Below, piece by piece: positions 8,643 to 59,771 of a DNA stretch of 64,000 nt (its first letter is position 1; each line of letters begins with the position of its first letter). Below the pieces are notes generated by a model. It was not told the DNA's origin. It saw only the letters and a program-made list of their open reading frames with translations, and did no database searches. A program made the position numbers and the translations under genes. Source of the DNA: a virus (taxonomy: Duplodnaviria; Heunggongvirae; Uroviricota; Caudoviricetes); IMG/VR virus record IMGVR_UViG_3300011113_000787, positions 47,269-111,268 of that record; one strand, given 5' to 3'.

Positions 8643-9803
8643 TTACTCAGTTTCACAATTCAAACCAAGAAAATCTTCATCAAAAGATTTTGGTAAACCT
8701 TTCCCTGTATCGTAGACCCAATTTCCACAATCTCTTTTTTTCTCCGCAGGATAGACTAAAATCCCTCCGATATCATAGGATAATAATTTTGAGTATTTGG
8801 CTTGTGAGCTCTTTATTTGAATTGGTACCCATTTGTCTTCAAATTTGACCATTAAATCACATTGAAATGTTATGTCTACAAGATTCCCATATGAAGAAAA
8901 AATTCTAATATTTTCTCTTGGAATACCATTATACAATAAATCACTTAAGAAGTCCCTTTCAGCAGATTCACCTTTTTCTGTAGTCTTTTTGATTCTTTCC
9001 AACATTCTTCTATAATCGTAATCGGATTCTGAATCATCCGCACTTATTAGTAAAGAGAGAACATCTCTGTCGGCTAAACTCAATTCAGGAACTTTTAGTT
9101 TTATTAAATCCCTTTGTTGTGGGCCGTATCCAGATAAATCAACTATATTTTCAATAGGTTTTTCTTTGAAGTAGTTTTTTACCTTTTCTGTAACTGTTCT
9201 CCCCTCCAACTCCCCTTCTACGTCGCTCTTTGCTATTAACTTTATCCAATTTGTATAGTTGGTGTTAATTCTATTGAGTATTGACCAATCGTCTTTTTCT
9301 ATAAATCCAAAAAAATCTCTAGCACCTAATTGTCTAATCAACTTATTACATTCATTCGTGATTGTAGATTTATACTCTCTATCAGGGAAATCAAATTTTT
9401 TTCCTGTGTCCTCGATGTTATTTTTGAAGAACACCAAGTCTCTAACGTTTTGTAGAATCCAACTCCTTTCAGGTTGACCAACCTTGATATTTTTGTTGTT
9501 GTTCAGCATGATTTTTTTGTTACTCCTGATTAGGTCGTTATATGTTTTTGTACCTAATTCTTTAATCAAATCATGAATTTTTTGGTTGGTTCTTATAGAA
9601 TCCAGAATCGATGTGGCGTAGTATTCCTTTTTAAATTGTGATACCGCCTTATTATATTCCGCCTTTGTAATTTTTCCGAAAACTCTTAGTTTACGACCAA
9701 TGTCCTGCAAGGTTATATCAGGTCCCTGATAATTCCTTAGCATTTCATATGTGTCGTATTTTTCCTCTTGCTCCTGTAAAAATTTTCGAATAGAACTTTT
9801 CAT
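8643..9803 (-). CDS. hypothetical protein (386 aa); possible PD-(D/E)xK-like C-terminus
   Basis: Start reassigned to ATG 9803 (TATTTATTACAG upstream; track start 9881 runs through a terminator hairpin). C-terminus VDITF..CDLMVKFEDK is weakly nuclease-like. Confidence 0.5.
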   Translation of the reverse strand: MKSSIRKFLQEQEEKYDTYEMLRNYQGPDITLQDIGRKLRVFGKITKAEYNKAVSQFKKEYYATSILDSIRTNQKIHDLIKELGTKTYNDLIRSNKKIMLNNNKNIKVGQPERSWILQNVRDLVFFKNNIEDTGKKFDFPDREYKSTITNECNKLIRQLGARDFFGFIEKDDWSILNRINTNYTNWIKLIAKSDVEGELEGRTVTEKVKNYFKEKPIENIVDLSGYGPQQRDLIKLKVPELSLADRDVLSLLISADDSESDYDYRRMLERIKKTTEKGESAERDFLSDLLYNGIPRENIRIFSSYGNLVDITFQCDLMVKFEDKWVPIQIKSSQAKYSKLLSYDIGGILVYPAEKKRDCGNWVYDTGKGLPKSFDEDFLGLNCETE

Positions 9804-9821
9804 CTGTAATAAATACCAAAA

Positions 9822-9853
9822 TAAAATAAAAATCCCCTCACTGTGGAGGGGAT
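9822..9853 (-). terminator. rho-independent terminator (minus strand)
   Basis: A-run + ATCCCCTC actgt GGAGGGGAT on plus strand = hairpin + U-run on minus strand. Confidence 0.55.
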
Positions 9854-9861
9854 TCAAAATC

Positions 9862-10158
9862 TTACTCTTGTACGGGTTCATCTGAGGACCCTTTGGATTT
9901 GTTAATCCATTTGTCCACAGAACCTATTCCAAACGAACCTAACACCAACCAAAGGAAAGCATTAAAGATAAAATCGTTTATCACAAGGTCCTTTCCAAGT
10001 GAGCCAGTAACGATGTCTGCAATTGCAAATAAAACCATCATCACAAAAGCTAAAAATCCAACGACACTTTTTTCATTAATTGAGTTGTTGTCGTTAAACA
10101 ACTGTCCGAAAAATTTTTTCATAGTATTTGGTAATTTACTTACCAATAAATATTTCAA
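9862..10158 (-). CDS. small membrane protein (98 aa)
   Basis: Two hydrophobic helices. Confidence 0.4.
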   Translation of the reverse strand: MKYLLVSKLPNTMKKFFGQLFNDNNSINEKSVVGFLAFVMMVLFAIADIVTGSLGKDLVINDFIFNAFLWLVLGSFGIGSVDKWINKSKGSSDEPVQE

Positions 10159-10176
10159 AATTTCAACGAATCAGTT

Positions 10177-11157
10177 TTAATTAACGACCAAACTTACATA
10201 AACAGGGAATCCAATTGTATAGTTAGTTGTTGCAGATTGTATAAGAACGGCAGCGCCTGATGGGGTACCACTTGGAGGAAGTCCTATATTAGCACCAAAC
10301 ACAAATCCTGAACCCATTGGTGATTGAATCCATTGTTTAAATGAGTTCGTGTCTCCTGAATAAATTGCAGTATTACCAGTTTGTGAGAATGTTATTGTTA
10401 CACTTTGACCTGTAAATGTAGAGTAGTAGCTTGTTCTATCAATTCCATCAGTATCAAAAGAATTGAAATAGAATCCTCTTCCTCCTGTTGCCAAGACATT
10501 AATTTCAGTACTTCCTGTAATCAAACCACCTGTATTATTCATAATTGAATTACCTGATGATGGGAAGTTATATGGTGTAGCAACTAAGTTGAAGGAATAT
10601 CCCGTTACAGGTTGAGGGGATGTTGAAGGTGTTGGTGTATTTGTTGGAGTACCTGTATTTGTTGGTGTAGGAGTAACTAAGATTTCTGTTGCTGTAGGCG
10701 TTGGAGTCGGTGTTACGACAACTTCTGTTGCTGTTGGGGTCGGTAATGAATCATAAGAAGTCCAAAACCCGTTTGCATTTAACCAAATTTTAGCATCATT
10801 GGGGTTAGTAAAAACCTGTGGGGTTGAATATTTTCCTGAAAGGTACTCCGCAAGATTAATAAATGAGGTATCATCACCAGGTATCTTACTTCTCCAAAAT
10901 TGTACAAATCCTGTTCCCGACAAAGGTAAAGGTTGTGTACCTCCTGATTGAGGATAACCGATAACATATCCTAAATCTTCATCAGGTCCGTTTTTCCATG
11001 TAAGTCCACCATACCCTTCCGATACAGGTAATTCATTTGTTCCAATTGCTAAATCACCAACTTGTGTTGTTGCTGAAACGGTGGAACCCGTATTATATGC
11101 GAAAGGTCTTGATGTTGCCATGATTGTATGTTCTTGGTAATTTTGATTTACTCTCAA
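10177..11157 (-). CDS. tail fibre / receptor-binding-like protein (N-terminal anchor domain + PT-rich linker + C-terminal domain)
   Basis: N-terminal ~110 aa ~80% identical to 11181..12227; PTPTATE(V/I)(V/L)VTPTPT repeats; no signal peptide. Confidence 0.5.
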   Translation of the reverse strand: MRVNQNYQEHTIMATSRPFAYNTGSTVSATTQVGDLAIGTNELPVSEGYGGLTWKNGPDEDLGYVIGYPQSGGTQPLPLSGTGFVQFWRSKIPGDDTSFINLAEYLSGKYSTPQVFTNPNDAKIWLNANGFWTSYDSLPTPTATEVVVTPTPTPTATEILVTPTPTNTGTPTNTPTPSTSPQPVTGYSFNLVATPYNFPSSGNSIMNNTGGLITGSTEINVLATGGRGFYFNSFDTDGIDRTSYYSTFTGQSVTITFSQTGNTAIYSGDTNSFKQWIQSPMGSGFVFGANIGLPPSGTPSGAAVLIQSATTNYTIGFPVYVSLVVN

Positions 11158-11180
11158 TAAATACCCTCAGTAAATTAAAA

Positions 11181-12227
11181 TTATATACCGTACAAAGATT
11201 TTCTAGAATTAAAGAAATTAGTTACTTGAGTTTGACTAATTGCACCATTCCAAACTCTCCATTGTCCAATGTAACCTTTGAAATAACCGTTTGCGCCACC
11301 CAAATATGAATTTGCTGTATCAGGTCTTCCTAATGTTAAAGTTGTTGCTGAAGGATTGGCTTTAACTCCGTTTGTTGTCGAAATTAGTGAACCGTTTACA
11401 TACAACTTGAGATTTCCACTAATAGGGTCGTATGTTAGTACAATATAATACCATGTGTTAACTGAAAAATTTGGTCCTTGAATATATGGGTTAGGTGAGA
11501 AATTATCAGGGTAAACACCACCATTTATTTTTCCTCCAACAAATGCGAGTTGAGCATCATTCCATCCTGTTGGTGGGAATCCACTCCATTCTGCAATCAA
11601 AGTACCGTTCTGTGTTTTAGTTGGATAAGCCCATATCTCATATGTTAGTCCACATGTATCCATATCATTACCGAAACCAGATATTGGTATTACAAATGAA
11701 GTTGTTCCACTCAAGGCAACAACTTGATTTCCATTAAATGTTGCTAACGCATAATCGTTATATAATGTGGCGTTTCTTCCATTACCTGAGATATCCGCCC
11801 AAATGTTACTTGTGATTCCTGTTGTAGAATCTAACTCCATCAGTTTGGATGCCGCACCACAACCAATCCCAAATGAAGTCCAATAACCGTTTGACTCTAA
11901 CCATGTTTTAGCGTCATTTCCTGTGGCAAAAGTTTGAGAAAAATTTGCAATATATTCAGCTAAACTTATGAATGTACCTTCGGTCAAATCCTCAGACCTC
12001 CAAAATTGAACGAATCCTGTTCCTGAAACGGGTAATGGTTGTGTACCTGCAAAGTTCGGATAACCAATCACATAACCCAAGTCTTCATCTGCACCATTTT
12101 TCCAAATCACACCACCATATCCTTCAGATACAGGTAAGTCATTTGTTCCGATTGCTAAATCTCCTATTTGTGTTGTTGCGGATATTGTTGAGCCTGTGTT
12201 ATAGGCGAAAGGTCTTGTTGTTGCCAT
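11181..12227 (-). CDS. tail fibre / receptor-binding-like protein with LamG/concanavalin-like C-terminal domain
   Basis: Shares N-terminal domain MAT(S/T)RPFAYNTGST..FVQFWRS with 10177..11157; C-terminus LKLYVNGSLI...YFKGYIGQWRVWNGAISQTQV is LamG-like. Confidence 0.55.
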   Translation of the reverse strand: MATTRPFAYNTGSTISATTQIGDLAIGTNDLPVSEGYGGVIWKNGADEDLGYVIGYPNFAGTQPLPVSGTGFVQFWRSEDLTEGTFISLAEYIANFSQTFATGNDAKTWLESNGYWTSFGIGCGAASKLMELDSTTGITSNIWADISGNGRNATLYNDYALATFNGNQVVALSGTTSFVIPISGFGNDMDTCGLTYEIWAYPTKTQNGTLIAEWSGFPPTGWNDAQLAFVGGKINGGVYPDNFSPNPYIQGPNFSVNTWYYIVLTYDPISGNLKLYVNGSLISTTNGVKANPSATTLTLGRPDTANSYLGGANGYFKGYIGQWRVWNGAISQTQVTNFFNSRKSLYGI

Positions 12228-12256
12228 TTTTTTTTATTTATAAATATCAAGTTTTT

Positions 12257-12823
12257 TTATCCACACTGACCCCAATTTATCACAAGGGTTCCAGTAACTT
12301 GAATAAAGGTTGCTCCATCAGTAATTGTAAATTTTGCACCTACAGGGGGTATTGTGAAAAGTCTATCCCCATAGACATTATCACCTGGTCTCAGTAAATG
12401 AAATGGTTTTGGTGCGTATATTTTTACGTTACTTGGAGTTCCATAATCAATTGACTCACATACATCTTGATACCAATTACCTGTAACTAAATTTTCTATA
12501 AAAACAGGTGTTGGTGTTAATGTTGGAGTTGGTGTATAGGTTGGTGTGGGGGTTGGCGTATGTACTGTTGGGGTTGGTGTAAGTGTTGGGGTTACTGAAG
12601 GCGTTAATGTTGCAGTTGGCGTAGCTGAAGGACACGGTCCAATGATTTCTATTGTTAGAGGGGAACTATATTCTTCTTGTATTAAGTTTTCTGCACAAAC
12701 ATATGCTCTATCTAAAGGATTCAAAGGAGAAACACTTATGATTCCTCCTGTACATCCAGTCCATCTATAATACCCCTCTTCAACGCTGTTATAATTGGTA
12801 ATTTCGTAGTAGTTACACGCCAT
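12257..12823 (-). CDS. PT-linker protein, probable fibre-associated
   Basis: Start reassigned to ATG 12823 (track start 12877 lies inside a terminator hairpin); PTPT repeats; TATTTATAGTT box upstream. Confidence 0.45.
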   Translation of the reverse strand: MACNYYEITNYNSVEEGYYRWTGCTGGIISVSPLNPLDRAYVCAENLIQEEYSSPLTIEIIGPCPSATPTATLTPSVTPTLTPTPTVHTPTPTPTYTPTPTLTPTPVFIENLVTGNWYQDVCESIDYGTPSNVKIYAPKPFHLLRPGDNVYGDRLFTIPPVGAKFTITDGATFIQVTGTLVINWGQCG

Positions 12824-12846
12824 AACTATAAATAGAATGGGTATAT

Positions 12847-12875
12847 AAAAAAAAAGGGGAAGCCGTCGCTTCCCC
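12847..12875 (-). terminator. rho-independent terminator (minus strand)
   Basis: A9 + GGGGAAGC cgtc GCTTCCCC perfect 8-bp stem. Confidence 0.6.
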
Positions 12876-13228
12876 AAATCTCCGTCGAGATAATTTTGGT
12901 CTAATTTTTTTTGGACTGTGGGCGAAAGACCGATAAACCCGAGGAAGTGGACAACTTCTGTTTCAAATTTTACGCCCGAAACATCCAGAAAAGGCAGTGG
13001 TTGTTAGTTTCTTAAGGTAAACTAGAATTTCCTTTCGTCTAAACCTCCCGTGTTTTGATTGACCTTCTATATCTAATTTATAGAGCGGAGAAGAAAGAGG
13101 GTCGGGTGAGTATGGGGAACCACCACGATAACAAACATTCCGCTGTCCATTTGTTTTACAAAGATAAGAAAGATTTTAATGCCTTCCAAATCTTTTCAAA
13201 AAATTCAGATAAAAATCTGAAAATTTCG

Positions 13229-13316
13229 TGGTTGGGAGTGGAGTCGAACCACTGGCTCACGGTTTTCACCCGCTGCTCTACCATAAACCCCGAAGAGTCA
13301 CTGAGCTACCTCAACC
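13229..13316 (-). tRNA. tRNA-Phe(GAA)-like with 17-nt D-loop insertion and bulged acceptor stem (possibly a pseudo-tRNA)
   Basis: Reverse complement reads GGTTG(A)GG-TA-GCTC-AGT[GACTCTTCGGGGTTTAT]GGTA-GAGC-A-..CGG-GTGAAAA-CCG..-AGTGG-TTCGACT-CCACT-CCCAACC-A. T-arm, D-stem, U33-GAA-A37 anticodon loop all present; CCA not encoded. Confidence 0.5.
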
Positions 13317-13476
13317 AATTGTCTTACAAAGATAAGTTATCTGTGCCTGACTTCCAAATTTTGTAAGAACTTTTTTTTGTTCGAATACCGAGTATCTTTC
13401 ATCACCTGTGAGTTCCGAACAGAATACAAAGTTATATTATTCTACTTGAATCGTCAAACTTTTTATATTTATTTTT

Positions 13477-14112
13477 ATGAAAATTTTTCTAACTACCATA
13501 GTTTTATTCTTGAGCCTGAACACTTATTCTCAAGATACTATTCGTATCAAACACACCAACTACTCAACAGTGTTTTCAATCTCAAAAAAATATCCCGTTC
13601 TTGTTGAATGGTGGGTTACTAAGTCTATGGTAACTTGTCCTACTCCTCTCAAAAGAAAAGACAATTTCAAACCTGACCCTAAACTGATTGAACATACCGA
13701 CATTGCAAAGGATTACGTGGGAAGTGGGTTTGATAGGGGTCATATGATGCCTGCCGCAGATAACTTATGCCAAACACCTCAAGTTCAAGACGAGTGTTTT
13801 TATTTTTCAAATATGTCCGCGCAATATCACAGTCTGAATGCTGGTGATTGGAAATCTTTAGAAACCTATGTTAGAGAAGAGGTAAAAAAAACAGATTCAA
13901 TACGTGTATGGACAGGTAATGTAGGTGAGATTCAAAAAATCGGCAAAGTGTCCGTACCAAAATATTGTTGGAAAGTAATATACATTAAGAGTTCGAATGT
14001 TTGGAAGTCTTTTTTGTTTGAAAATAACAAAAACAAACCAGATGGTTTTCAAAACAACGAGGTGAAATTAAGTGAAATAGAAAAGTTGACGGGTTTTATG
14101 TTCAAGAATTGA
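13477..14112 (+). CDS. secreted DNA/RNA non-specific endonuclease (EndoG/Serratia nuclease family)
   Basis: Signal peptide MKIFLTTIVLFLSLNTYSQ; active-site motif GFDRGHMMPAADN (DRGH beta-beta-alpha-Me). Confidence 0.7.
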   Translation: MKIFLTTIVLFLSLNTYSQDTIRIKHTNYSTVFSISKKYPVLVEWWVTKSMVTCPTPLKRKDNFKPDPKLIEHTDIAKDYVGSGFDRGHMMPAADNLCQTPQVQDECFYFSNMSAQYHSLNAGDWKSLETYVREEVKKTDSIRVWTGNVGEIQKIGKVSVPKYCWKVIYIKSSNVWKSFLFENNKNKPDGFQNNEVKLSEIEKLTGFMFKN

Positions 14113-14404
14113 TAACCCCATCAAGATATTTTTTTATTGTCCTTCTGATTTTTTGTTCTCCTAATGCAACCCACTCATCTTCAATCATCTGAAAAATTTT
14201 CCCCACAAGATATTTTTTGTTACCCAAAAGTGGTCTAGTTTTATCATCTATTTGTATAAATTTTGCAGGAGTTTTCATCCAATCAAAATTTATTTCGTGT
14301 GTCGGAAAATGTCTTTTGAGATAAGTCAAAAGCTCATCTGAAGTATCATCATTATATTTTGATAAAATTTCTTTTCTTTCTTCTTCTGTGATACGCATAT
14401 TCAT
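14102..14404 (-). CDS. small protein with family N-terminal motif (MRITEEERKEIL)
   Basis: TATTTATGAAT box directly upstream of second ATG (14398). Confidence 0.4.
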   Translation of the reverse strand: MNMRITEEERKEILSKYNDDTSDELLTYLKRHFPTHEINFDWMKTPAKFIQIDDKTRPLLGNKKYLVGKIFQMIEDEWVALGEQKIRRTIKKYLDGVINS

Positions 14405-14436
14405 AAATATAAGTCTATTTATTTGAAAATCTAACT

Positions 14437-14568
14437 ATGGCAAAAGCAAAAGGCGGTGCAAGTGTATCAAGAAAAATTTCCTTCGGTAAAAGAAAAGGGG
14501 GAGTTGCTAAAAAATCTTATAACAAACACAATCCGAAACCAAAACCTTATAGAGGTCAAGGACGCTAA
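14437..14568 (+). CDS. small highly basic protein (43 aa), not in ORF track
   Basis: MAKAKGGASVSRKISFGKRKGGVAKKSYNKHNPKPKPYRGQGR; ATG 14437, TAA 14566-14568; preceded by TATTTATTTG box. Confidence 0.3.
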   Translation: MAKAKGGASVSRKISFGKRKGGVAKKSYNKHNPKPKPYRGQGR

Positions 14569-14604
14569 CTTTAGTTTTACGATAATTCAATTATAATTTT
14601 TATC

Positions 14605-14892
14605 ATGTTAGATAAGAAAAGAAGACTTTTCCGCCTAATAGAAACCTACATCAATGACTACCAAAAAGAAGCGGTGGAGGAAATGTATGGTGTGGGCACC
14701 AAAATCAAAATTCACAATATCGCAGAATCTCAAACACAAAATTCAATTTTGTTTGAGGCAATCATTGTTTTGGGGGATACTATAACCGAACAAGTTATGG
14801 ATAGAAAATTAGCAGACATTTTAATTCAAGACGCTGTTGTCTATTTTTTCCCTGACCAATCTATTAAAACTTATGTAAGATGGGATGTTTAG
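14605..14892 (+). CDS. hypothetical protein (95 aa)
   Basis: ORF on plus strand in a short plus-strand island. Confidence 0.35.
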   Translation: MLDKKRRLFRLIETYINDYQKEAVEEMYGVGTKIKIHNIAESQTQNSILFEAIIVLGDTITEQVMDRKLADILIQDAVVYFFPDQSIKTYVRWDV

Positions 14893-15197
14893 AGAGTTCT
14901 TTTTCTCATTTCCTCAAGTAATTCACTATTTTCTTTTTGGAGGAATTCTACTTTTACAGTCAGAGCCGAAACCTTTTCTGTAAGTGATAAAATTGTTGTT
15001 CTCATGTCGTCTTTTTCTTTTGAGCTCAACTGAAGAAGGGCTTCTAATTTAGCGATTCTGTCTCTGCAGTCATCACGAACAAAATCCTCGTCTCTTTCTT
15101 TTCTCATTGCTCTTTTTTCGTAAAATCTCCAAGCACTTGTTGAACCCAAAACTGTGACGATGGTTATTAACACCGTCCAAACTGAATCACTCGTCAT
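14889..15197 (-). CDS. membrane-anchored coiled-coil protein (102 aa)
   Basis: N-terminal TM WTVLITIVTVLG then charged coiled coil. Confidence 0.4.
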   Translation of the reverse strand: MTSDSVWTVLITIVTVLGSTSAWRFYEKRAMRKERDEDFVRDDCRDRIAKLEALLQLSSKEKDDMRTTILSLTEKVSALTVKVEFLQKENSELLEEMRKRTL

Positions 15198-15210
15198 ATT
15201 TTAATTTTCT

Positions 15211-15347
15211 TGTATTTTCATAAATACACAAAAGTCAAGAAAAGAATATTTTTTTTAATTAAAAATTTCTGAAGGGAGGGAAATAATTATTATTCTTATA
15301 GAATAATAATATAAATTAAAATATATAAAAAACTAGTAATACTAGTT
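15211..15347. promoter_or_regulatory. AT-rich control region with three perfect palindromes (operator candidates)
   Basis: TGTATTT tcat AAATACA (15211-15228); ATTATTATTC ttata GAATAATAAT (15286-15310); AACTAGTA a TACTAGTT (15331-15347). Confidence 0.35.
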
Positions 15348-15357
15348 CTAGGTGATT

Positions 15358-15627
15358 TTAAACAAAATCAACACAGCATTCCAAATTCAAAAGACTTTCC
15401 AAAAAATTTGTAACTTCGTTAATTGTAAAATTTGACTCCAAGTAAGGGGAACCCGATTTATTTTTGATGGATAAAAAAATGGTGTGGGAATCAGGTAACC
15501 ATTGGTCACTAACTTGGTCGTACTTTTGTGTTGGTAGTATCACCATCTCTCTGATTTGTAAACTATCACCATATGAAAGTTCAAAAGAGGATTCAACTAA
15601 TCTTTTTATGCGTTTAATTTTGTCCAC
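15358..15627 (-). CDS. hypothetical protein (89 aa)
   Basis: ORF in minus operon. Confidence 0.35.
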   Translation of the reverse strand: MDKIKRIKRLVESSFELSYGDSLQIREMVILPTQKYDQVSDQWLPDSHTIFLSIKNKSGSPYLESNFTINEVTNFLESLLNLECCVDFV

Positions 15628-15992
15628 GTCATATCAGAATTTAAAACGACCGAGTATAAGTATTTTTTATTCCATTCTTTGGGTCCAATTAAAGATAGTG
15701 TGCGTCCACCATCACTTTCCTCATATAAGTGATATATCTCCCCTATAATCGGTTCAAATTTGTATCTTGACTCGTAGACCTCTTGTTGTAAAAGGATTGA
15801 ATTTTGAAGGGTTTCTGCGTCTCTAATGAGTTCTTCATACCGTCTCTTGATAACCCTATCTACTTTATTTAGACCGTGACTTTTGAATGCGGTCAAATCG
15901 GTGGGCTCAATCTTTGGAGCACCAACATGTGTAGGGTATGGAATACTCTTTGGCTGTAGATTTACCTTATCGATATGAGATTGTGTCGACAT
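15606..15992 (-). CDS. hypothetical protein (128 aa)
   Basis: ORF in minus operon. Confidence 0.4.
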   Translation of the reverse strand: MSTQSHIDKVNLQPKSIPYPTHVGAPKIEPTDLTAFKSHGLNKVDRVIKRRYEELIRDAETLQNSILLQQEVYESRYKFEPIIGEIYHLYEESDGGRTLSLIGPKEWNKKYLYSVVLNSDMTWTKLNA

Positions 15993-15995
15993 TTT

Positions 15996-16625
15996 TTATA
16001 AAACTTCTAAAATTGTTTCGGAATGTGAAGGAGAAAATATAATCAAAGGATTTCCTCGACTATTCTCATACATACATGTTAATAACGGTAAAAGGAATAG
16101 ATAAAGTTTATCTCTAACTAATTTTTCAATATTTGGGTTCATAAGCTCACTGTGATGAGTTGGTGAGACCGTGATATGAATTTCTAATGGTCCGAAATAT
16201 ATTACTCCCTCAAGATTTGGGTCAATCCTTCCTTTTGGTTTAATTCTAACTTCAGTAACATCAATTATCCATGGAAATGTTTTCATGAGTAACCTTTTGA
16301 GAGGTTTTTCATCAAGCTTCAAAGGGTCTTTTTTTTCATAGGTTGATGATGCAACATAATTCAAGGTGGAACCACACCATTGAACAAAATATTCTACGGG
16401 CATAGAGGTTGGACTAGGTGTTTTTTCTTGATATGTGTTGGTTTTATTAGTTAAAATAGATGCAGTCATCGGGGTATCGTGTGCGAGTGGTAGATTTGTC
16501 GGCACAAAAAGTAATTGGTTCAAAACATGTGGGTCTTGTTGGTTGTTGAATCTCACTTGAGTTTCCTCAACTTCCCTGTTTTCTTCTTTAGTGAAAAATG
16601 AGATTAAAGTCTTAAGTACGGTCAT
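15996..16625 (-). CDS. hypothetical protein (209 aa) with FPWIIDV motif
   Basis: Shares KxFPWIIDV block with 39158..39661. Confidence 0.45.
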   Translation of the reverse strand: MTVLKTLISFFTKEENREVEETQVRFNNQQDPHVLNQLLFVPTNLPLAHDTPMTASILTNKTNTYQEKTPSPTSMPVEYFVQWCGSTLNYVASSTYEKKDPLKLDEKPLKRLLMKTFPWIIDVTEVRIKPKGRIDPNLEGVIYFGPLEIHITVSPTHHSELMNPNIEKLVRDKLYLFLLPLLTCMYENSRGNPLIIFSPSHSETILEVL

Positions 16626-16627
16626 AA

Positions 16628-16651
16628 ATAAAAAAGTCCCTTTATAGGGAC
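16628..16651 (-). terminator. rho-independent terminator (minus strand)
   Basis: A-run + GTCCCTTTATAGGGAC hairpin. Confidence 0.5.
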
Positions 16652-16681
16652 AATTTTAAAAAATATATTTCAAAAAAACAA

Positions 16682-17179
16682 TTACTGACCTTTAATCATT
16701 CCAATACCATGTTTCAAGAATTCCTTAGCTCTTGGTGAAATGTGTTGCATCGCATAAACTTTTTCGATGTCTTTAACAAGTTCCTCACCATGTTCGTTTT
16801 CCTTGTACAGTTCGATGATTTTGTCCATTGCCTTGGTACATTCTTTCTTAGTTTCATCAAAATAATTGTAAGGTTTAAAACCTTTTAGATGATTCATAAT
16901 CTCGTAAGCCAAGTGTTCCCCACCATCCGAAACCTTCGGGTGTAGTCTAAGGGTTTTAAGTAATTCAAGTTTATCAACTAAACCTCTAACCCCATTTTTT
17001 CTCATCTTAACCCCTTCGATATAATCATCATCTTCGTCATCACCCACAATTTCCTCTAATGATTTTGTATTTCCTGCGTGGCAAAATTTTCTATCTTCAG
17101 TTTTTTCCGATTCACTGACTTGATAGATTCCTCTAATTCTTTGTTTTTCTTCTTCAGTTAAAATAAATCTTTTACCCAT
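16682..17179 (-). CDS. hypothetical protein (165 aa) with family N-terminal motif (FILTEEEKQRIRGIY)
   Basis: TATTTATAGTC box 4 nt upstream of ATG. Confidence 0.45.
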   Translation of the reverse strand: MGKRFILTEEEKQRIRGIYQVSESEKTEDRKFCHAGNTKSLEEIVGDDEDDDYIEGVKMRKNGVRGLVDKLELLKTLRLHPKVSDGGEHLAYEIMNHLKGFKPYNYFDETKKECTKAMDKIIELYKENEHGEELVKDIEKVYAMQHISPRAKEFLKHGIGMIKGQ

Positions 17180-17212
17180 GACTATAAATACTGCACTTTC
17201 GTTAAAATTTAA

Positions 17213-17914
17213 TTACTCCAAATCCTGATGTAAAAATAAAATTCTATCGTTATCTGTAAGTTTTTCGGTTGTAAAAGAAAATGGTGAATAGTCAAACTTA
17301 TAAAAACAAGGTTTGAAAAATTCGTAAACTAAAACAGCAGACTTAAAATCATAAACATCCTGATAGGAAAAATGTCTTTCATTTATGAATCGATTATCTT
17401 CCAAAAGAGAACTTATTCTCGATATTTCATTTTCAGTTTTTGTAATAAAAGGGAGATTCAGTATGTCTTCTTCGAGATTTTCAAATCTTATATAAAAGTC
17501 GACATCAATAGTATCATAAGTCCATTTCTGAAAAAAATTGTTTTTATCATCATACCATGGACTTAGAAAAACGTGAGGACCATTGTGCCAAAAATTTTCA
17601 GAAACCCATTTGGTAAATTTTGATTTGTAATCTTTTGAGTTTCTATATATAGGTTTTTCCAGAATGAATTTCTGATAGCAGGCAAACACTCTATCATAAG
17701 GATTTCTAACATTGGCAACAATTTGGAAATCTAAAAAGTCCTCTTCAATATGATTTTCTTGTGAATGGGTATCATTACGAAAATTCACCAATTTGAATTT
17801 GTTTTTTTTCTTTTTGGTGAAAAAATGATAATTTTCTAAGATTTTTTTCGTGATTGAACTTGCGGTTCTTTCAGGTGCCAACCATATTACTTGGTTTTCA
17901 ATGGAAACATTCAT
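17213..17914 (-). CDS. sulfotransferase-like protein
   Basis: IWLAPERTASS (5'-PSB-like) and RNPYDRVFACY (3'-PB-like RNPxDR..S/C.Y) in correct order and spacing; tentative. Confidence 0.35.
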   Translation of the reverse strand: MNVSIENQVIWLAPERTASSITKKILENYHFFTKKKKNKFKLVNFRNDTHSQENHIEEDFLDFQIVANVRNPYDRVFACYQKFILEKPIYRNSKDYKSKFTKWVSENFWHNGPHVFLSPWYDDKNNFFQKWTYDTIDVDFYIRFENLEEDILNLPFITKTENEISRISSLLEDNRFINERHFSYQDVYDFKSAVLVYEFFKPCFYKFDYSPFSFTTEKLTDNDRILFLHQDLE

Positions 17915-18331: not shown

Positions 18332-18351
18332 TTTTCTGTTTTAATAAAAAT

Positions 18352-18659: not shown

Positions 18660-18667
18660 AAAAAGTA

Positions 18668-50626: not shown

Positions 50627-51777
50627 TTGAAATCAAATGTAAAACTTTCACTATCGATGAAGTGTTCCCCCATCTTATTGGTTATCTTTTCTCTAAATTC
50701 GTTTAAGAAATTGCTCGTGTTGAGATAACATCTATCTTCAATTAAGAAAGCTAAATCAGGGAAAGGATTTGTTCTCTCAGGTTTAGCCATCAAATCGATA
50801 GTTTCCAAAACCTTATCAAACATTCCAAGACGTTCATAATAAAAAGCCAAATACATAAAATGTTCATTTCTTCTTAATGAGAACTGTCCTGCTAACATGT
50901 AAGTTTCCTCAGCCTTTTGATGGTCACCAATAAACTCATAAGCCCATCCCATTACAATCAGTCCGAAATAAGCCATTTCGTCGCTATACTTAGCAGTCTT
51001 GGACTCATTCCACTTATGTGTAAGTTCTAAGAATCTTTCGTAATACCAAATAGACCTTCTTGCATATTCTTCTGAGTGTTTTCTACCAAAAGGTAATTCA
51101 CTTGAATTACCGTAGCAGTCCGCATAACTTTTAGCAATATACCAAAGGTGGTAATAATCTTCATTAACTTTGTCTCCAACGACTTTATCAATTTCAAGTT
51201 CCAAAGCATCTCTAAGAAACTTTCTTGGTGCTAACCATGTGTTACCATCTTGAGAAACCAAATGTCTAAACCCATAAGGCATTGAAAGTCTCTGAAACTC
51301 TTCTCCAACTTCAGGAAGATGGATTGTTTCGTGTCTTTTATCGTGAGCGAAATAGAATGGTAATTTAGCATTCCAAAACCAACATCTGAAATATCTCATC
51401 CCACCTGTGTCTGCAGTAATGTTATAACTCTGAACTGATGTGTCGTTTAAAATTGACCAATCAAAGTCTTCATCTACCTGAAGTCTTTCATCGGCATCCA
51501 TTCTGAGTATCCAATCACAACCATGGTCCGCCTGTAAACACTTTTGGAGTGTGTGGTCACGGTTCCAACCTGGGAAATTCCACTCAACCTGATAGGTGAA
51601 TCCAGGTATGTTCTTTTCCTTAAAGAAGTTATCAATCTTTTGTTGAGTATCGTCATTTCCGTTACATTGAATAACATAGTAGTCAACATAAGGTGCAACA
51701 GATTCTAACATTCTTGTAATGGTGGCAGATTCGTTACCGACCATTGAGTTTACACAAATTTTTGTAGTTTTATTCAT
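50623..51777 (-). CDS. glycosyltransferase (GT2-like N-terminal domain) with TPR-like C-terminal region
   Basis: ICVNSMVGNESATITRMLESV...RMDADERL (DxD) ; overlaps glf start by 4 nt. Confidence 0.5.
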   Translation of the reverse strand: MNKTTKICVNSMVGNESATITRMLESVAPYVDYYVIQCNGNDDTQQKIDNFFKEKNIPGFTYQVEWNFPGWNRDHTLQKCLQADHGCDWILRMDADERLQVDEDFDWSILNDTSVQSYNITADTGGMRYFRCWFWNAKLPFYFAHDKRHETIHLPEVGEEFQRLSMPYGFRHLVSQDGNTWLAPRKFLRDALELEIDKVVGDKVNEDYYHLWYIAKSYADCYGNSSELPFGRKHSEEYARRSIWYYERFLELTHKWNESKTAKYSDEMAYFGLIVMGWAYEFIGDHQKAEETYMLAGQFSLRRNEHFMYLAFYYERLGMFDKVLETIDLMAKPERTNPFPDLAFLIEDRCYLNTSNFLNEFREKITNKMGEHFIDSESFTFDFK

Positions 51778-53017
51778 AAATGTAATTCATTACTCCCTCT
51801 TCTTCGAAGAATTTCTTTACGGGAGTGTGTTTTTGAAATTTATGGGAATGTCCCAACTCTTCGTCCCAATACCAATCATCATATCCGAGTTCTTTAATTC
51901 TTTCATGGATTCTTGTATCGTAATGGTCTCTTATTAATCTAGCTCTTCTGTTGATATCAATTGCGTTGTTATCAACTGTACTATTTCTGTTGTTGTATTG
52001 TAAGTATAACATTTTTTTCACATGAATAAATCTTGTATGAAGAAATGACCTTACAATAATTTCAAAATCATCAGCCACAGGAGTGGACTTATTATGACCA
52101 CCGATATCGTGGTAGAAGTTTCTTTCCCACATCCTTATGTGATTTGGCATTGATATGTTAAATCTGATGGTAAGAGGGTTGATATCAGGGTACCAATGTG
52201 CTAAGTACCTTTTACCATCCGCAACCACCCAACTATGTCCAGCATAACCAAAATCAAAGTAGTTATCGGGTCTTGCATACCAATTACCACTCCAATCGTG
52301 GTCGTAAGATTTCATTTCACCATCTTCATAAACCTCACAACTGTCGGTATATAAAAACTTACCATCAGGGTATTTCTGAATCGCACTCAAACATGTTTCC
52401 AAACAGTTTGAAATCAAAGCGTCGTCATGGTCTAATTCACAAACCCAATCTCCATCACAAAGCATTGCTGCTCTATGTTTAGACAAACCCACATTACCAC
52501 CAGTAAGAGGGTAAATTTTATGTATTTTTACTCTAAAGTCTTGGTTTGAAATTAGTTGGAGTTTTTTCCAAGTATCATCATCAGGGGAGTCATCAACAAC
52601 TACCCATTCCCAATCTCTAAAGGTCTGATTTTTGAGACTTTCATACGTTCTGAATATTCTATCACCCGTTTTATATGTTGGAGTGAATATGGAGAACTTA
52701 GGACGACGGTATTTACAATTTCTAAAAACCGATTGGCATACAATTATGTTAGCCAAAACGTTATCCCCCAAAACCTCGTCAAGGTGAACGTGAATATCGT
52801 GTAATTTTGAATCATTAATTTCTATAGGTTCAACGATAGAAACAATTAAATCGGGTTCATATTTCGAATAGTCTGAGAATACATCGTCAGTATAGGGTAA
52901 TGATATAAGTTGAACCTCATCTTCCAAACCTTCCTCAAAATAAACATCCGACTGTAAAATGTGGTGACCTTGAAAATGCCATCCATAAACTATTGCACTA
53001 GGTTTCTTTGTCTTCAT
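51770..53017 (-). CDS. family 2 glycosyltransferase
   Basis: FSIFTPTYKTGDRIFRTYESLKNQTFRDWEWVVVDDSPDD and ELDHDD (DxD). Confidence 0.55.
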   Translation of the reverse strand: MKTKKPSAIVYGWHFQGHHILQSDVYFEEGLEDEVQLISLPYTDDVFSDYSKYEPDLIVSIVEPIEINDSKLHDIHVHLDEVLGDNVLANIIVCQSVFRNCKYRRPKFSIFTPTYKTGDRIFRTYESLKNQTFRDWEWVVVDDSPDDDTWKKLQLISNQDFRVKIHKIYPLTGGNVGLSKHRAAMLCDGDWVCELDHDDALISNCLETCLSAIQKYPDGKFLYTDSCEVYEDGEMKSYDHDWSGNWYARPDNYFDFGYAGHSWVVADGKRYLAHWYPDINPLTIRFNISMPNHIRMWERNFYHDIGGHNKSTPVADDFEIIVRSFLHTRFIHVKKMLYLQYNNRNSTVDNNAIDINRRARLIRDHYDTRIHERIKELGYDDWYWDEELGHSHKFQKHTPVKKFFEEEGVMNYIYE

Positions 53018-54632: not shown

Positions 54633-56276
54633 TTATTCTATTGTAAATTTATCTGTATTAAAATAATTATTTTCCCAATAAGGAGGTTCAATTTTTTTAG
54701 CACTTATTTTCTTCAAAAACTGACCATCCTTATCATAGACCTTTACTTTATCCGATGGCATACCTCCAATGAAATCCGCTTCAAAAATATATCTATTCCC
54801 ATCCTTTGATTTAACAACATCCGTCCAAGTACCATTTCTATAACCTTTTAGAAAACTACCTTCGGAACGAATACTACCATCAGGGAAATAATAAGTCCAT
54901 TTACCCAAATAGTTTCTTGAAGCACCGATTTTACCAATGGCCTCAACTTTCCCTGTTCTTCCGTAGAAAATAGTTTTACCAAATGGGTAAGAATCCGATT
55001 GGTTTTTTATCTGAGAAACATACCTTATCCTACCTGTACTAGTATAACCAGTTTGAGTCATATCTGAAAAATTCATTTTCTTATAAACTCCGTCATAATC
55101 ACCCAAAGTCCAAAGTCCTTCAGGTTTTCCACTTTTATCGTAAGTGCCTTTTTTATAGGTTCTTCCGTTTTTGAAATTCTCTTCAAATTCACCTATTAAT
55201 TCGTCATATTTTGTACGAATTCCTTTTTTTTCAATCTTTCCATCTGAATAATATTGAACAAAAGGTCCTTCAAGTTTACCCTTATTATATGTCTGAATTC
55301 CAGCAAGTTGACCTCCCCCGTAAAAATACTTCCAAAGACCCTCTTTTTTGCCTTTGTCGTCTTCAAAACCTTTATCTTTAACAGGAATTTCAAATTGACT
55401 TGGGAAATTTTCAGCCTCAATACTGTATTTAGGTACCCTATCACCAACAAATTTGAAAAAATCAATTTGTTTTATATTATGAAGTTCACGGTCATTTTTG
55501 TCCATAAATTGACCTGATTCATGATGTAGTTGATAAGGAGACCTTGTATCATCCAAATTGAAAAGTAAAAAATAACTTGAACCCTTTGGGTCGGTAAGGT
55601 AATTTTTGAAGAAACTATATTGACCTATGGTACATATATCAATTTTGGCACCTTTGTCCCTTCCCTTACATCTTCCGAGTATGTCTCTATATAACTTCCA
55701 AACGTCCTTGTTAACACCAAAAACTTCGAATACCTGATACTTGTAGTCACCGTTATCGTATATCCCCAAGTATTTTATACCACCCGATGATTCGAGCTTC
55801 TCGATATCATTTTGTGAAACAAAGTTGTCTTTACCCTGAATTTCATCATAGACAATATTTCCCTCTCTGAGTTTAATAACCTCTTGTAAAAACTTTTTAA
55901 CGTCCTCAGCTGTTTTGTATAGGTGAATGTCTCTATGTTCGAACTTTTTCTTGTTCTTCTCGTAAAGGTCAAAGTATTCTTTGTATTTGTAGATGTCTTC
56001 GGCTTTGATAATACCAGTCCCAACCTTTTTTGTAAGCCAACTCAGTAAGTAAAATTTGTCTCCTGTAACCTCAGCCAATTTGTTGAAGTCTTCTTCAGAA
56101 ATAGGCTTACCTTCACCAACATATTTGTTTTTCAAATTGATGGTGTTTTGGTCTACTTGTTCTCTAAGAAGTTTCAAAATGAGTGAGCGTAATTCCATAC
56201 CCATAAATACTTTAGAGGAACAGTTTGTGAACGCTGTCCTGTTGGAACTTAAGACATAGGTAGGAACCACCGTCAT
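54633..56276 (-). CDS. large protein (547 aa) with C-terminal MORN-like repeats
   Basis: Repeated G..(E/D)G.w..yY.nGk motifs (e.g. EGLWKYFYGGGQL, EGPFVQYYSDGKI, GKWTYYFPDGSI) in C-terminal half. Confidence 0.45.
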   Translation of the reverse strand: MTVVPTYVLSSNRTAFTNCSSKVFMGMELRSLILKLLREQVDQNTINLKNKYVGEGKPISEEDFNKLAEVTGDKFYLLSWLTKKVGTGIIKAEDIYKYKEYFDLYEKNKKKFEHRDIHLYKTAEDVKKFLQEVIKLREGNIVYDEIQGKDNFVSQNDIEKLESSGGIKYLGIYDNGDYKYQVFEVFGVNKDVWKLYRDILGRCKGRDKGAKIDICTIGQYSFFKNYLTDPKGSSYFLLFNLDDTRSPYQLHHESGQFMDKNDRELHNIKQIDFFKFVGDRVPKYSIEAENFPSQFEIPVKDKGFEDDKGKKEGLWKYFYGGGQLAGIQTYNKGKLEGPFVQYYSDGKIEKKGIRTKYDELIGEFEENFKNGRTYKKGTYDKSGKPEGLWTLGDYDGVYKKMNFSDMTQTGYTSTGRIRYVSQIKNQSDSYPFGKTIFYGRTGKVEAIGKIGASRNYLGKWTYYFPDGSIRSEGSFLKGYRNGTWTDVVKSKDGNRYIFEADFIGGMPSDKVKVYDKDGQFLKKISAKKIEPPYWENNYFNTDKFTIE

Positions 56277-56925: not shown

Positions 56926-56951
56926 AAGGCAAAGATAAGGGAAATATGTTA

Positions 56952-57576: not shown

Positions 57577-57602
57577 TTTCGTTTTATTTAACGGTTTATA
57601 AA

Positions 57603-57641
57603 TAAAAATCCCATCTTCACCTGCAACGTAGTTGAGATGGG
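57603..57641 (-). terminator. rho-independent terminator (minus strand), long hairpin
   Basis: CCCATCT...AGATGGG with nested CAAC gta GTTG. Confidence 0.4.
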
Positions 57642-58319: not shown

Positions 58320-58605
58320 GGTTAATATTTCTTATTGTTGCGGTGGCTGAATGAACGGGAACTCCAACCATATCCTCAACGAACTGTGCAAGTTCGTGTT
58401 TAAACAAATGAAAATCAGGACCCATAGTTCTTTCGGTAACATAAAATATTGGATGAAGAATATAATAGGTTCCACCCATCATTGCTTTACCTTCTTCAAT
58501 CGCAACCTCAGTTTTCATAACAGAGTTGTTTGTGAAAGTCTCAGCAACCTGTTTGATAATTTCTTTTATCCTATCGTTTTGTTCCTCAGTTATAATGTAT
58601 CTCAT
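58294..58605 (-). CDS. MRYIITE-family small protein (array member 3)
   Basis: MRYIITEEQNDRIKEIIKQ. Confidence 0.5.
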   Translation of the reverse strand: MRYIITEEQNDRIKEIIKQVAETFTNNSVMKTEVAIEEGKAMMGGTYYILHPIFYVTERTMGPDFHLFKHELAQFVEDMVGVPVHSATATIRNINHEVRNIRK

Positions 58606-59012
58606 AAGTTTCCTTGGTTACCCCAGCCAAAGTTATCAACTTTTTTTACTTTCAAACCCGTATTATTTTGGAACCATTCAATAAAGATAGGTTTCCAACC
58701 TTCACCAAAATATGCAGACAGAGAGTTTACAATACCATCAGGTAACAAAACTAATGGACAATCTTCTTTTTTCAAACTCACATTGGGATTGGTATAAACT
58801 GAATACCACATATGACTTCCATCATCGGGTGTATCAACATCATCGATGAAGATGAAAACCTCACCGTCATTTTCCTTTAACTCACTTTTGTACTTTTTGG
58901 GAGATTGCCAACCATCAAATGGCGTTAGATTTTTGTCGAAATACTCGATAATTTGGTCTACCAACCTTCTGTTTTGTTCCTCTGTTATAATATAAATCAT
59001 ACTTTTGTCCAA
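58602..59012 (-). CDS. MIYIITE-family small protein (array member 4)
   Basis: MIYIITEEQNRRLVDQII; C-terminus IEWFQNNTGLKVKKV. Confidence 0.5.
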   Translation of the reverse strand: MDKSMIYIITEEQNRRLVDQIIEYFDKNLTPFDGWQSPKKYKSELKENDGEVFIFIDDVDTPDDGSHMWYSVYTNPNVSLKKEDCPLVLLPDGIVNSLSAYFGEGWKPIFIEWFQNNTGLKVKKVDNFGWGNQGNL

Positions 59013-59452
59013 TTTAATGAATAGACATCCACATCAAGAGGTGTCCCATAATATGTTACATCAATATTGAAAAAGGATTTTAGGTCTTTGAATATTTCCC
59101 TTTTGGTTACAGCAGCCCAATTTCTATCATTTTCCATATTATTGAAATCAAAATAAAACTTCAGATTTGGTTTCTGAATTGAAAAGTTTTCATGTCCATA
59201 GTGAGAGGGTTTCTCCTTAATCTCAATCTTTACCAATAAGTCACCGTACTTAGATTCGAAGTAATCAACTATCCTTGGAATAATACTTTCAATATGACTT
59301 TTATATTCTTTAATGAACTCAATTCTGCCTTCCGTCGGTAGGTTGTGAAACTTCACCACCCAATCTGGTGTATTAGGTTCAACTTTGAGTGCTTCCTTTA
59401 AAACCTTTCTAATGAGTTCTTTCATCGTCCCCTTTCTGTTTTTTTGTTCCAA
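58997..59452 (-). CDS. hypothetical protein (151 aa), family-like N-terminus (MKELIRKVLKEALK)
   Basis: ORF, array member 5. Confidence 0.45.
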   Translation of the reverse strand: MEQKNRKGTMKELIRKVLKEALKVEPNTPDWVVKFHNLPTEGRIEFIKEYKSHIESIIPRIVDYFESKYGDLLVKIEIKEKPSHYGHENFSIQKPNLKFYFDFNNMENDRNWAAVTKREIFKDLKSFFNIDVTYYGTPLDVDVYSLNWTKV

Positions 59453-59723
59453 AATAATATGAGAATATCATCAGAGTCAATGTTTTTATAAGGTCAAAAA
59501 GTTCAGCATTTTGTTCTTCATCAACAAGTTTTATCTTAAATGCAATTACCTTATCAACAATAAAGAGTGCCACAAGAGCGGTAAAAACCATCAGAATAAA
59601 CCTTACCAATACCTCTTGAGTGGAATCTTTGAATAACTTACTTACATACCATATCGACCCCATGATGAAACCAAGGGCTAATAGTATACCAAAAATCATT
59701 ACAATTCCACCTTCGCTAAACAT
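59409..59723 (-). CDS. small membrane protein (104 aa)
   Basis: Two hydrophobic helices; TATTTATTGTT box upstream. Confidence 0.4.
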   Translation of the reverse strand: MFSEGGIVMIFGILLALGFIMGSIWYVSKLFKDSTQEVLVRFILMVFTALVALFIVDKVIAFKIKLVDEEQNAELFDLIKTLTLMIFSYYFGTKKQKGDDERTH

Positions 59724-59745
59724 AACAATAAATACAAAAGAAAAT

Positions 59746-59771
59746 AAAAAACCCCTCCGTTTCTGAAGGGG
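59746..59771 (-). terminator. rho-independent terminator (minus strand)
   Basis: A-run + CCCCT..AGGGG hairpin. Confidence 0.5.

Follow-up and report, generated by a model that had tools for sequence, protein, structure and literature searches.

A putative promoter box set close to the start codons of an uncultivated jumbo phage

The sigma-A promoter of Bacteroidota combines a -7 element, TAnnTTTG, with a -33 element, TTTG; in Flavobacterium johnsoniae, the -7 element spans positions -12 to -5 and the mapped start lies 4-5 nt downstream (PMC6847099). Leaderless genes, in turn, have a computational signature: a TA-box about 12 nt before the start codon (PMC3160421). Here we analyse a box, R-TATTTAT (R, purine), that lies four or five nucleotides before many ATGs in a 64,000-nt stretch of viral DNA (positions 47,269 to 111,268 of IMG/VR record IMGVR_UViG_3300011113_000787), called the window throughout. 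The window is a piece of an uncultivated jumbo phage from a clade with ~320-kb IMG/VR contigs. Its genes have no Shine-Dalgarno (SD) sequence, its start codons sit in an A-rich context and its signal peptides end in AQ or SQ; together with host-type promoter boxes, these traits point to a Bacteroidota host. Judged by sequence and position, the box appears to work like a -10-only promoter generating leaderless mRNA, and falls outside the host -7/-33, T4 late and phiKZ/AR9 classes. Literature searches, both on the box motif and on leaderless mRNAs of Bacteroidota, crAss or Flavobacterium phages, brought up no account of the box.

One close relative among described promoters is the sigma-A element of the same host phylum. 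Like it, the box is AT-rich, begins with TA and ends 4-5 nt before the inferred start, and true TAnnTTTG boxes in these genomes lie at the same distance from ATGs (PMC6847099). However, the box departs from the host 8-mer, T-12 A-11 n n T-8 T-7 T-6 G-5: it has A at the near-invariant T-7, no G-5 and fixed bases in place of nn. Its 7-mer ends 4-5 nt before the ATG, which agrees with the host start distance only if transcription begins on the A of the ATG. A preliminary description of the window had suggested checking for a TTG at -33, and neither TTTG nor TTG is there: a position-by-position logo numbered relative to the box is at most 0.42 bits throughout -45 to -2, leaving no -35/-33 partner. 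A sigma-70 consensus scan came out at or under shuffle expectation. The box-led genes would be mostly leaderless, whereas host leaders average 24-33 nt (PMC6847099, PMC9723704).

A second likeness is to the TA-like signal of Actinobacteria and Deinococcus, TANNNT about 12 nt upstream (PMC3160421). The first T of the box lies 11 nt (four-nucleotide spacing, N4) or 12 nt (five-nucleotide spacing, N5) before the ATG at 23 window sites and 307 sites overall, and the box shares with that signal both the restriction to ATG and the lack of a ribosome-binding context (frequency of A at -3, 0.26 versus 0.51). It differs in phylum, in being a fully specified 7-8-mer of the form TANNNNT and in being viral, not chromosomal.

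T4 late mRNAs have leaders with SD sequences. The T4 late promoter (TATAAATA, recognized by gp55 together with gp33 and the sliding clamp) resembles the box as one ~8-bp element near -10 that lacks a -35 partner and drives lysis and structural genes, among others, in a large phage using host core polymerase with phage sigma factors. On the non-template strand, however, the box does not read TATAAATA but TATTTAT, the complement of ATAAATA, and an A follows it at only 131 of 307 sites, so its reverse complement is not TATAAATA either. In the jumbo phages phiKZ and AR9, too, the start has a conserved AT-rich element a few bases ahead of it (PMC5312081, PMC8244752). These phages use their own multisubunit polymerases without sigma, with the consensus sequences AAATATATATTAT-N6-G, AACA-N6-TA/G and TATG (PMC5312081, PMC8244752); AR9 leaders measure 26-491 nt (PMC5312081), and phiKZ has no leaderless transcripts (PMC5312081, PMC8244752). 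Our phage does not belong with them: the window encodes no RNA-polymerase domain, relatives carry a sigma-70-family gene and the predicted leaders are 0-19 nt.

The box and its distance from start codons

The composite TATTTAT-N4/5-ATG occurs 23 times in the window, against 1.09 ± 0.96 expected and a maximum of 5 in 300 dinucleotide shuffles, a frequency well above the AT-content expectation that the preliminary description had named as its yardstick. TATTTAT itself occurs 55 times (31.0 ± 5.2 expected, maximum 45) and GTATTTAT 20 times (4.9 ± 2.1 expected, maximum 11). No 7-mer comes near TATTTAT in frequency at the N4/5 offset; five T and two A can be arranged in 20 other ways, which are equally frequent in the window, yet stand at this offset 0-6 times. 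For forty of the 55 copies, an ATG with a reading frame of at least 40 codons follows within 25 nt, and the box is always oriented towards the gene.

Spacing is sharply restricted. Sixteen window sites are N4 and seven N5, a looser group of 17 lies at 10-23 nt, and distances of 0-3 and 6-9 nt have no case in the window. Among 110 unique sites from the clade, the counts are 39 (N4), 23 (N5), 1 (N3) and 2 (N6). The preliminary description had placed the box 0-16 nt before starts; the box is real and enriched, and all 11 of its examples are present at the ATGs it named, but the range gives way to a tight N4/N5 class and a separate, more distant one. The base 5' of the box in the window is G (14) or A (8), never T, and is a purine at ~90% of 307 unique sites from related phage loci. 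Also borne out is the suspicion that many open reading frames (ORFs) had been called too long: the calls at 9881, 12877, 37817, 38211, 38611, 45288 and 56276 run through the box and often through a hairpin. On L422, a 200,929-bp contig from an ENA metagenome that shares synteny with window 20-41 kb, genes called independently begin at box-defined ATGs (products of 475, 109, 288 and 233 aa).

Two IMG/VR relatives, L001 and L002, align with window 4001-22698 at 75-90% identity. Box sites of the N4/N5 class in the window are as follows.

7809-7815, plus strand: N4, ATG 7820 (205 aa); terminator 7777-7806 abuts; identical in L001
9809-9815, minus strand: N5, ATG 9803 (386 aa); after terminator 9855-9830; kept in L001
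12828-12834, minus strand: N4, ATG 12823 (188 aa); after terminator 12875-12856
13466-13472, plus strand: N4, ATG 13477 (211 aa); L001 keeps the box, both flanks diverged
14403-14409, minus strand: N4, ATG 14398 (98 aa); divergent partner box 14416-14422, plus strand
17184-17190, minus strand: N4, ATG 17179 (165 aa); in L001 the upstream flank is strongly diverged, GCAGTATTTATAG kept
19073-19079, plus strand: N4, ATG 19084 (271 aa); divergent partner box 19046-19052, minus strand
22688-22694, minus strand: N4, ATG 22683 (233 aa); after terminator 22724-22701; kept in L001 and L422
26363-26369, minus strand: N5, ATG 26357 (288 aa); 21-nt spacer
28789-28795, minus strand: N5, ATG 28783 (475 aa, weak tape-measure-like match); 18-nt spacer
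29757-29763, minus strand: N5, ATG 29751 (109 aa); N4 in the L422 ortholog
35458-35464, minus strand: N5, ATG 35452 (110 aa)
37795-37801, minus strand: N4, ATG 37790 (81 aa); in a repeated terminator-promoter module
38178-38184, minus strand: N5, ATG 38172 (98 aa); in the same repeated module
38611-38617, minus strand: N5, ATG 38605 (112 aa); in the same repeated module
40935-40941, plus strand: N4, ATG 40946 (85 aa)
41547-41553, plus strand: N4, ATG 41558 (126 aa)
42763-42769, plus strand: N4, ATG 42774 (83 aa)
45405-45411, minus strand: N4, ATG 45400 (188 aa); divergent partner box 45439-45445, plus strand
45439-45445, plus strand: N4, ATG 45450 (90 aa)
48849-48855, minus strand: N4, ATG 48844 (133 aa); heads an operon reaching UmuD/UmuC-like genes; kept in the related locus L078
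56203-56209, minus strand: N4, ATG 56198 (521 aa, MORN-repeat protein); 13-nt spacer
59728-59734, minus strand: N4, ATG 59723 (104 aa); after terminator 59774-59749

Orthologs of the MORN gene in L077 and L078 have the same start, MELRSL. Sites with longer spacing include the following.

2934-2940, minus strand: N14 (short A-rich leader), ATG 2919 (polyphosphate kinase 2, PPK2, 368 aa)
4005-4011, plus strand: N14, ATG 4026 (endolysin, 271 aa); kept in L001, where the neighbouring copy at 4021 is not
12240-12246, minus strand: N12, ATG 12227 (348 aa, Laminin_G_3 virion-structural-like)
15220-15226, minus strand: N22, ATG 15197 (102 aa)
19046-19052, minus strand: N15, ATG 19030 (120 aa)
20102-20108, plus strand: N10, ATG 20119 (350 aa); spacer rearranged in L001, with its own GGTATTTAT
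30263-30269, minus strand: N16, ATG 30246 (135 aa)
31508-31514, minus strand: N15, ATG 31492 (95 aa); after terminator 31550-31529
38947-38953, minus strand: N15, ATG 38931 (77 aa); fourth copy of the repeated upstream module
39684-39690, minus strand: N22, ATG 39661 (167 aa)
42385-42391, minus strand: N13, ATG 42371 (124 aa); divergent partner box 42417-42423, plus strand
42417-42423, plus strand: overlaps host-type TATCTTTG at 42423-42430, plus strand, itself N5 from ATG 42436
57598-57604, minus strand: N21, ATG 57576 (150 aa); after a hairpin

Box positions are conserved. In the L001 alignment (85% identity), the box is intact amid scrambled flanks at 13466, 17190, 15226 and 19046/19073. 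Orthologous sites in L422 retain it, with one switch from N5 to N4, and non-homologous replacement cassettes there each carry a box of their own. We then scanned IMG/VR for the layout terminator-box-ATG (GGGGTTTTTT-N4-25-TATTTAT-N4/5-ATG). At least 120 stretches carry it, and among the matches listed an ORF is linked to 111 and at least two box sites occur in 59. In a scan of bacterial genomes, among the 120 matches listed, 85 lack an ORF and five have a second site, and they scatter over unrelated phyla. The contrast indicates that the layout is widespread in AT-rich phage contigs and not in bacteria. Host prediction from the bacterial matches was rejected as chance, these being of unrelated phyla and mostly without an ORF, and they serve as a negative control only. 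In a more distant locus (L342:3560-3580; MORN protein 51% identical), the box ahead of the 56198 ortholog differs by one base (GTATTTAC-N5-ATG), and the consensus may thus be slightly altered in remoter relatives.

Host-type -7 elements occur at the same offsets.

5243-5250, plus strand: TATATTTG, N4, ATG 5255
8638-8645, minus strand: TAATTTTG, N4, ATG 8633 (72 aa)
36313-36320, minus strand: TACATTTG, N4, ATG 36308 (103 aa)
56930-56937, minus strand: TATCTTTG, N4, ATG 56925 (237 aa); after terminator 56983-56958

TAnnTTTG precedes window ATGs at N4 four times, at N5 once and at N2, N3 and N6 never. In three phage locus sets the N4/N5 counts are 23/14, 39/14 and 21/13, against 0-7 at N0-3 and N6-7, and the distribution is flat in bacterial control loci. 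Overall the motif is barely enriched in the window (112 versus 92 ± 8 expected, reached by 1 of 100 shuffles). For genes behind these boxes, a 5'-terminal AUG is directly predicted, and a leaderless design thus appears to be a habit of the phage group. Separately, the divergent spacer 43310-43375, between genes 43309 (minus strand) and 43376 (plus strand), contains a perfect palindrome, TTTTTGATATATCAAAAA, adjoining a host-type TACTTTTG box; it looks like an operator at a host-type promoter.

A candidate promoter and the factor that may read it

The box is probably a promoter that starts transcription on the ATG or right beside it. N4 sites have a pyrimidine just before the ATG in 39 of 39 clade cases and in 159 of 167 (95%) across all phage loci. 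Transcription starts follow a Y(-1)R(+1) rule, which this pyrimidine matches. At the long-spacing sites of the clade set, an A stands 4 nt after the box in 32 of 42. The codon at the N4 and N5 offsets is ATG (163 and 144 sites), with GTG and TTG outside the top ten, as leaderless mRNAs require. The frequency of A at -3 is 0.26 in box spacers, compared with 0.51 in genes without a box and 0.67 in long leaders; the lack of an A-rich initiation context is expected if the spacer is untranscribed. A distance of 10-23 nt separates box and ATG in about 40% of cases; this exceeds the reach of a ribosome-binding element but comes naturally to a promoter with a short leader. Nor does a hidden upstream promoter seem to account for these genes, since host-type boxes lie within 60 nt upstream of only 20 of the 307 sites, close to the 13.6 ± 3.6 expected. 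Position, conservation, the pyrimidine, the exclusive use of ATG, spacer composition and the parallel with host-type boxes thus give computational support to the preliminary proposal of a -10/-7-like element with transcripts starting at or near the ATG.

The data show the motif with its spacing, conservation and context, the like geometry of host-type boxes and a phage sigma encoded by relatives. We infer a coherent mechanism that covers start position, leaderless translation and reading factor. R-TATTTAT would be a single-element core promoter of a Bacteroidota jumbo-phage clade, -10/-7-like and without a -35/-33 partner. RNA polymerase would melt the DNA at the box and begin transcribing 4-5 nt further downstream, on an A that follows a pyrimidine. 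For ~60% of box-led genes this A would be that of the ATG, giving a leaderless mRNA with a 5'-terminal AUG that the ribosome would take up without any upstream signal; the remaining genes would use the same start point and carry a 6-19-nt A-rich leader. Intrinsic terminators, often just upstream, would complete compact terminator-promoter-ATG units.

As to the reader, a phage sigma working with host core polymerase is a tentative choice, which we rate at a little under even. It is suggested by the departure of the box from host TAnnTTTG at two near-invariant positions (A at -7, no G-5). Group 2 jumbo phages, including Bacteroidetes phages, have no polymerase of their own and encode RpoD-like and/or minimal gp55-like sigmas together with gp33 (PMC7824862). 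Either type, the RpoD-like sigma of close relatives or a gp55-like late sigma, could be the reader. Domain searches found no RNA-polymerase or sigma domain in the window proteins, and no gp55 or gp33 was recognized among these window proteins; in relatives, only an RpoD-like sigma came to light. A phage-encoded RNA polymerase was considered as the reader and rejected, as no such domain turned up and relatives carry a sigma-70-family gene.

That gene was found in related loci with phmmer. Its product (L354:6001-6798; also in L352) is RpoD/RpoS-like, scoring under the equivalog cut-offs, and an alignment-based scan placed at least 564 IMG/VR members in the family, many on contigs of 180-326 kb. 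Sigma-bearing contigs of 321 kb and 200 kb also hold the window's closest relatives: IMGVR_UViG_3300032050_000001 (321 kb) carries the related locus L081 at 228-249 kb and sigma at 286-299 kb, and IMGVR_UViG_3300008113_000010 carries sigma and a close relative of the window. The sigma neighbourhoods were examined as 12.8-kb pieces around the gene. The sigma operon is headed by TATATTTG-N4-ATG and a neighbouring operon by TACATTTG-N4-ATG, and the 12.8-kb region around the L354 gene contains no TATTTAT-N4/5 site. These regions with host-type boxes are suggestive of an early region. The first genes behind host-type boxes are of early type (polynucleotide kinase (Pnk), RNA ligase, sigma and primase), and those behind TATTTAT boxes are a head-tail adaptor, endolysin, HNH nucleases and a glycosyltransferase; in the window, box-led genes of endolysin, virion-structural-like and tape-measure-like kinds occur. 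The division fits, without proving it, a cascade from early genes under host sigma-A to middle and late genes under the phage sigma, in which host-type boxes 4-5 nt before ATGs would drive the early genes, sigma included.

A larger scheme is possible, though we hold it more doubtful than the choice of a phage sigma: a two-tier, mainly leaderless programme in a large clade of Bacteroidota jumbo phages widespread in the environment, in which sigma-A boxes 4 nt before ATGs would serve early genes and the RpoD-like sigma, and that sigma would then redirect host polymerase to R-TATTTAT boxes, for AUG-first transcripts. If true, the phage would own a private transcription-translation channel, as its hosts lack SD pairing and rarely make leaderless mRNAs. 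Several consequences would follow if the box were the phage's own promoter and its transcripts leaderless. R-TATTTAT-N4/5-ATG would mark transcription and translation starts in hundreds of mostly unannotated IMG/VR contigs, some of ~320 kb; the rule would correct over-extended ORFs and make operon maps and early and late classes readable from sequence. It would add a second promoter specificity in Bacteroidota, a phylum with unusual signals and few engineering parts, and phage sigma with its cognate box would form an orthogonal expression module. Wholesale leaderless translation would occur where it was thought marginal, which bears on start-codon choice by ribosomes that do without SD.

A further observation concerns the proteins themselves. 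Many otherwise unrelated small proteins share the N-terminus M-[KR]-[YF]-I-[IL]-[ST]-E-[SEQ]-[QR]-L..., at window ATGs 35452, 37790, 41558, 42774, 21982, 25382, 29419, 37542, 58014 and 58319, and a variant, ...[KR]-L-[TN]-E-S-D-L-x-[RK]-L-V-K-R-[IV]-I-K-E, occurs at ATGs 31194, 31492 and 38931. The strict pattern falls within the first 16 residues of 15 of 123 proteins, compared with 0.56 expected from its internal frequency, and several protein pairs are alike over their first 19-29 residues only. By visual count, the peptide is on about half of the genes with an N4/5 box, and it is abundant in related phage loci. It matches no Pfam family, and one protein that carries it has only 'hypothetical' homologs. 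The peptide may serve as a tag for targeting or packaging, or may be an N-terminal helix common to these proteins, and the conserved M-K-Y-I-I-S/T-E-S-Q-L N-termini might be connected to the two-tier leaderless programme.

Spacers, terminators and other readings

Several points weigh against the promoter and its proposed reader. The start position is predicted from geometry, and a box-ATG distance of 4-5 nt would also suit an RNA element resembling a ribosome-binding site (RBS). If the TA of the box is matched to that of the host 8-mer, the start predicted for N4, the commonest class, lies one base into the ATG; a geometry slightly unlike that of host sigma-A is therefore required. Leaderless mRNAs are rare in the Bacteroidota examined to date, making up 5.5% in F. 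psychrophilum (PMC9723704), and in F. johnsoniae only ~13% of predicted leaders are 10 nt or shorter (PMC6847099). Some boxes stand in intercistronic spacers of 12-21 nt without a terminator (window 56198, 28783 and 26357; L422 5014, 5673 and 6070). In L422:5000-6080, three successive small genes are separated by 12-nt gaps reading TGA-TATTTAT-TGTTG-ATG, where the box fills the spacer and no terminator is present; this layout fits a ribosome signal as well as a promoter. Finally, the link between box and sigma is putative. The sigma has region 4, yet no -35-like element is conserved, and some sigma-carrying loci show few boxes locally.

The best-surviving alternative, unlikely in our estimate, takes the box for a weak or variant -7 element that unmodified host sigma-A would read without help from a phage factor. 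The box shares the leading TA, the T-rich core and the ATG distance of host-type boxes; in the N5 register T-12, A-11, T-8 and T-6 match the host consensus (PMC6847099), and F. psychrophilum has several -7 variants, including TAnnTTGY (PMC9723704). However, two near-invariant positions are violated: the sixth base of the box, at -7, is always A, and G follows the box at only 22 of 307 sites. The box is invariant where the host motif has a degenerate nn, the two kinds of box divide by gene class and genome region, and relatives encode a sigma of their own.

Less likely still is a role in translation, in which UAUUUAU would recruit ribosomes in place of SD and transcripts would start further upstream. 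Such an element could act through S1 or a phage-encoded S21 or S1, as reported in huge phages (PMC7162821); Bacteroidota do without SD sequences (PMC6847099), the constant 4-5 nt spacing is RBS-like, and boxes occur in short intercistronic spacers without terminators. Gene junctions, surveyed with starts corrected to box-defined ATGs, speak against it. Every window box lies in a true intergenic spacer of at least 13 nt, and none lies at any of ~50 junctions with 12 nt or less between genes, overlaps included, where translation must start too. Four divergent spacers have one box per direction (14403/14416, 19046/19073, 42385/42417 and 45405-45411 with 45439). The ~40% of boxes at 10-23 nt are too distant to bind ribosomes at the start codon, translation offers no obvious reason for a pyrimidine right before the ATG (95%) or a purine ahead of the box, and a known promoter element, TAnnTTTG, has the same spacing peak.

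Terminators bear on the same question, as they abut the box and an upstream promoter-like element is absent. A strong hairpin with a T-run ends 4-20 nt before the boxes at 7809, 9815, 12834, 22694, 29763, 31514, 37801, 38184, 38617 and 59734, with no space for another promoter in between. That is 9 of the 23 N4/5 sites in the window (~40%), plus 31514 of the long-spacing class. Across the 307 unique phage-locus sites the fraction is 25%, or 18% without the loci selected by pattern; the preliminary wording, that the box usually comes right after a terminator, was therefore too strong. Hairpin positions on the minus strand include the following.

22701-22724, minus strand: terminator-like hairpin, its T-run ending 4 nt (GTTG) before box 22694
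37846-37871, minus strand: intrinsic-terminator-like hairpin and T-run of the repeated module; sister copies at 38227-38256 and 38647-38676

With only GTTG between T-run and box at 22694, the box is the sole candidate promoter there if the terminator works. The repeated module is a ~60-nt unit present four times ahead of small genes at 37800-39010 (minus strand), ordered as terminator, then CATTTAAAAATTTTTGG(G)AAAAAATTGTCC..., then GGTATTTAT; all but the fourth copy have the hairpin terminator. It is a local duplication of the whole terminator-promoter unit. We considered AAAATTGTCC, from this module, as a further promoter part and rejected it, with 18 matches versus 15.4 expected; it belongs to the local duplication. 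Nearby, window 38985-39150 (minus strand) is unusually G/C-rich for a genome of 34% G+C, with runs of G and C, and has two TATTTATCCACA repeats, one just upstream and the other in the 5' part of the tract. A structured RNA at 38985-39135 is unconvincing (fold z = -1.8 versus shuffles, no Rfam match).

We consider it very improbable that the box marks gene-cassette boundaries, whether as an RNA-processing site trimming transcripts to the AUG, a regulator site or a mobile cassette end. The box does flank many small, rapidly exchanged genes, among them HNH and homing endonuclease genes, and the non-homologous L422 cassettes each bring one. However, sequence information stops at the edges of R-TATTTAT, with no sign of a cassette end or inverted repeat; the box-led genes also include large conserved ones (475 aa, 521 aa, endolysin, PPK2), and the box always points towards the gene. 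Chance, or base composition alone in the AT-rich spacers of a 34% G+C genome, is a practically negligible explanation, already refuted by the shuffle test (23 sites versus 1.09 expected) and the clade spacing, and opposed by isocompositional 7-mers scoring 0-6 at the N4/5 offset and by the retention of the box across relatives.

The source phage and its other genes

Most window genes are small, close-packed and on the minus strand. The window contains no tRNAs or Rfam families, and megablast and tblastn against INPHARED gave no match: its DNA is unlike that of any GenBank phage. The UmuC-like protein had no exact match in a look-up either. Relatives are present in IMG/VR and, for L422, in an ENA metagenome. 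Besides L001, L002 and L422, genes 83-87% identical to the MORN-repeat gene at 54633-56198 occur on viral contigs of 317,210, 321,139 and 321,283 bp. Recognized window genes comprise endolysin, holin, an M23 peptidase, the Laminin_G_3 virion-structural-like protein and the weak tape-measure-like match, as well as UmuC, UmuD, PPK2, glycosyltransferases, Glf and a SusC-like outer-membrane protein. The host-like accessory genes are placed as follows.

1813-2919: polyphosphate kinase 2 (PPK2)
45901-47476: UmuC/UmuD-like translesion polymerase
49511-53017: UDP-galactopyranose mutase and glycosyltransferases
60977-63454: SusC/TonB-dependent-receptor-like outer-membrane protein

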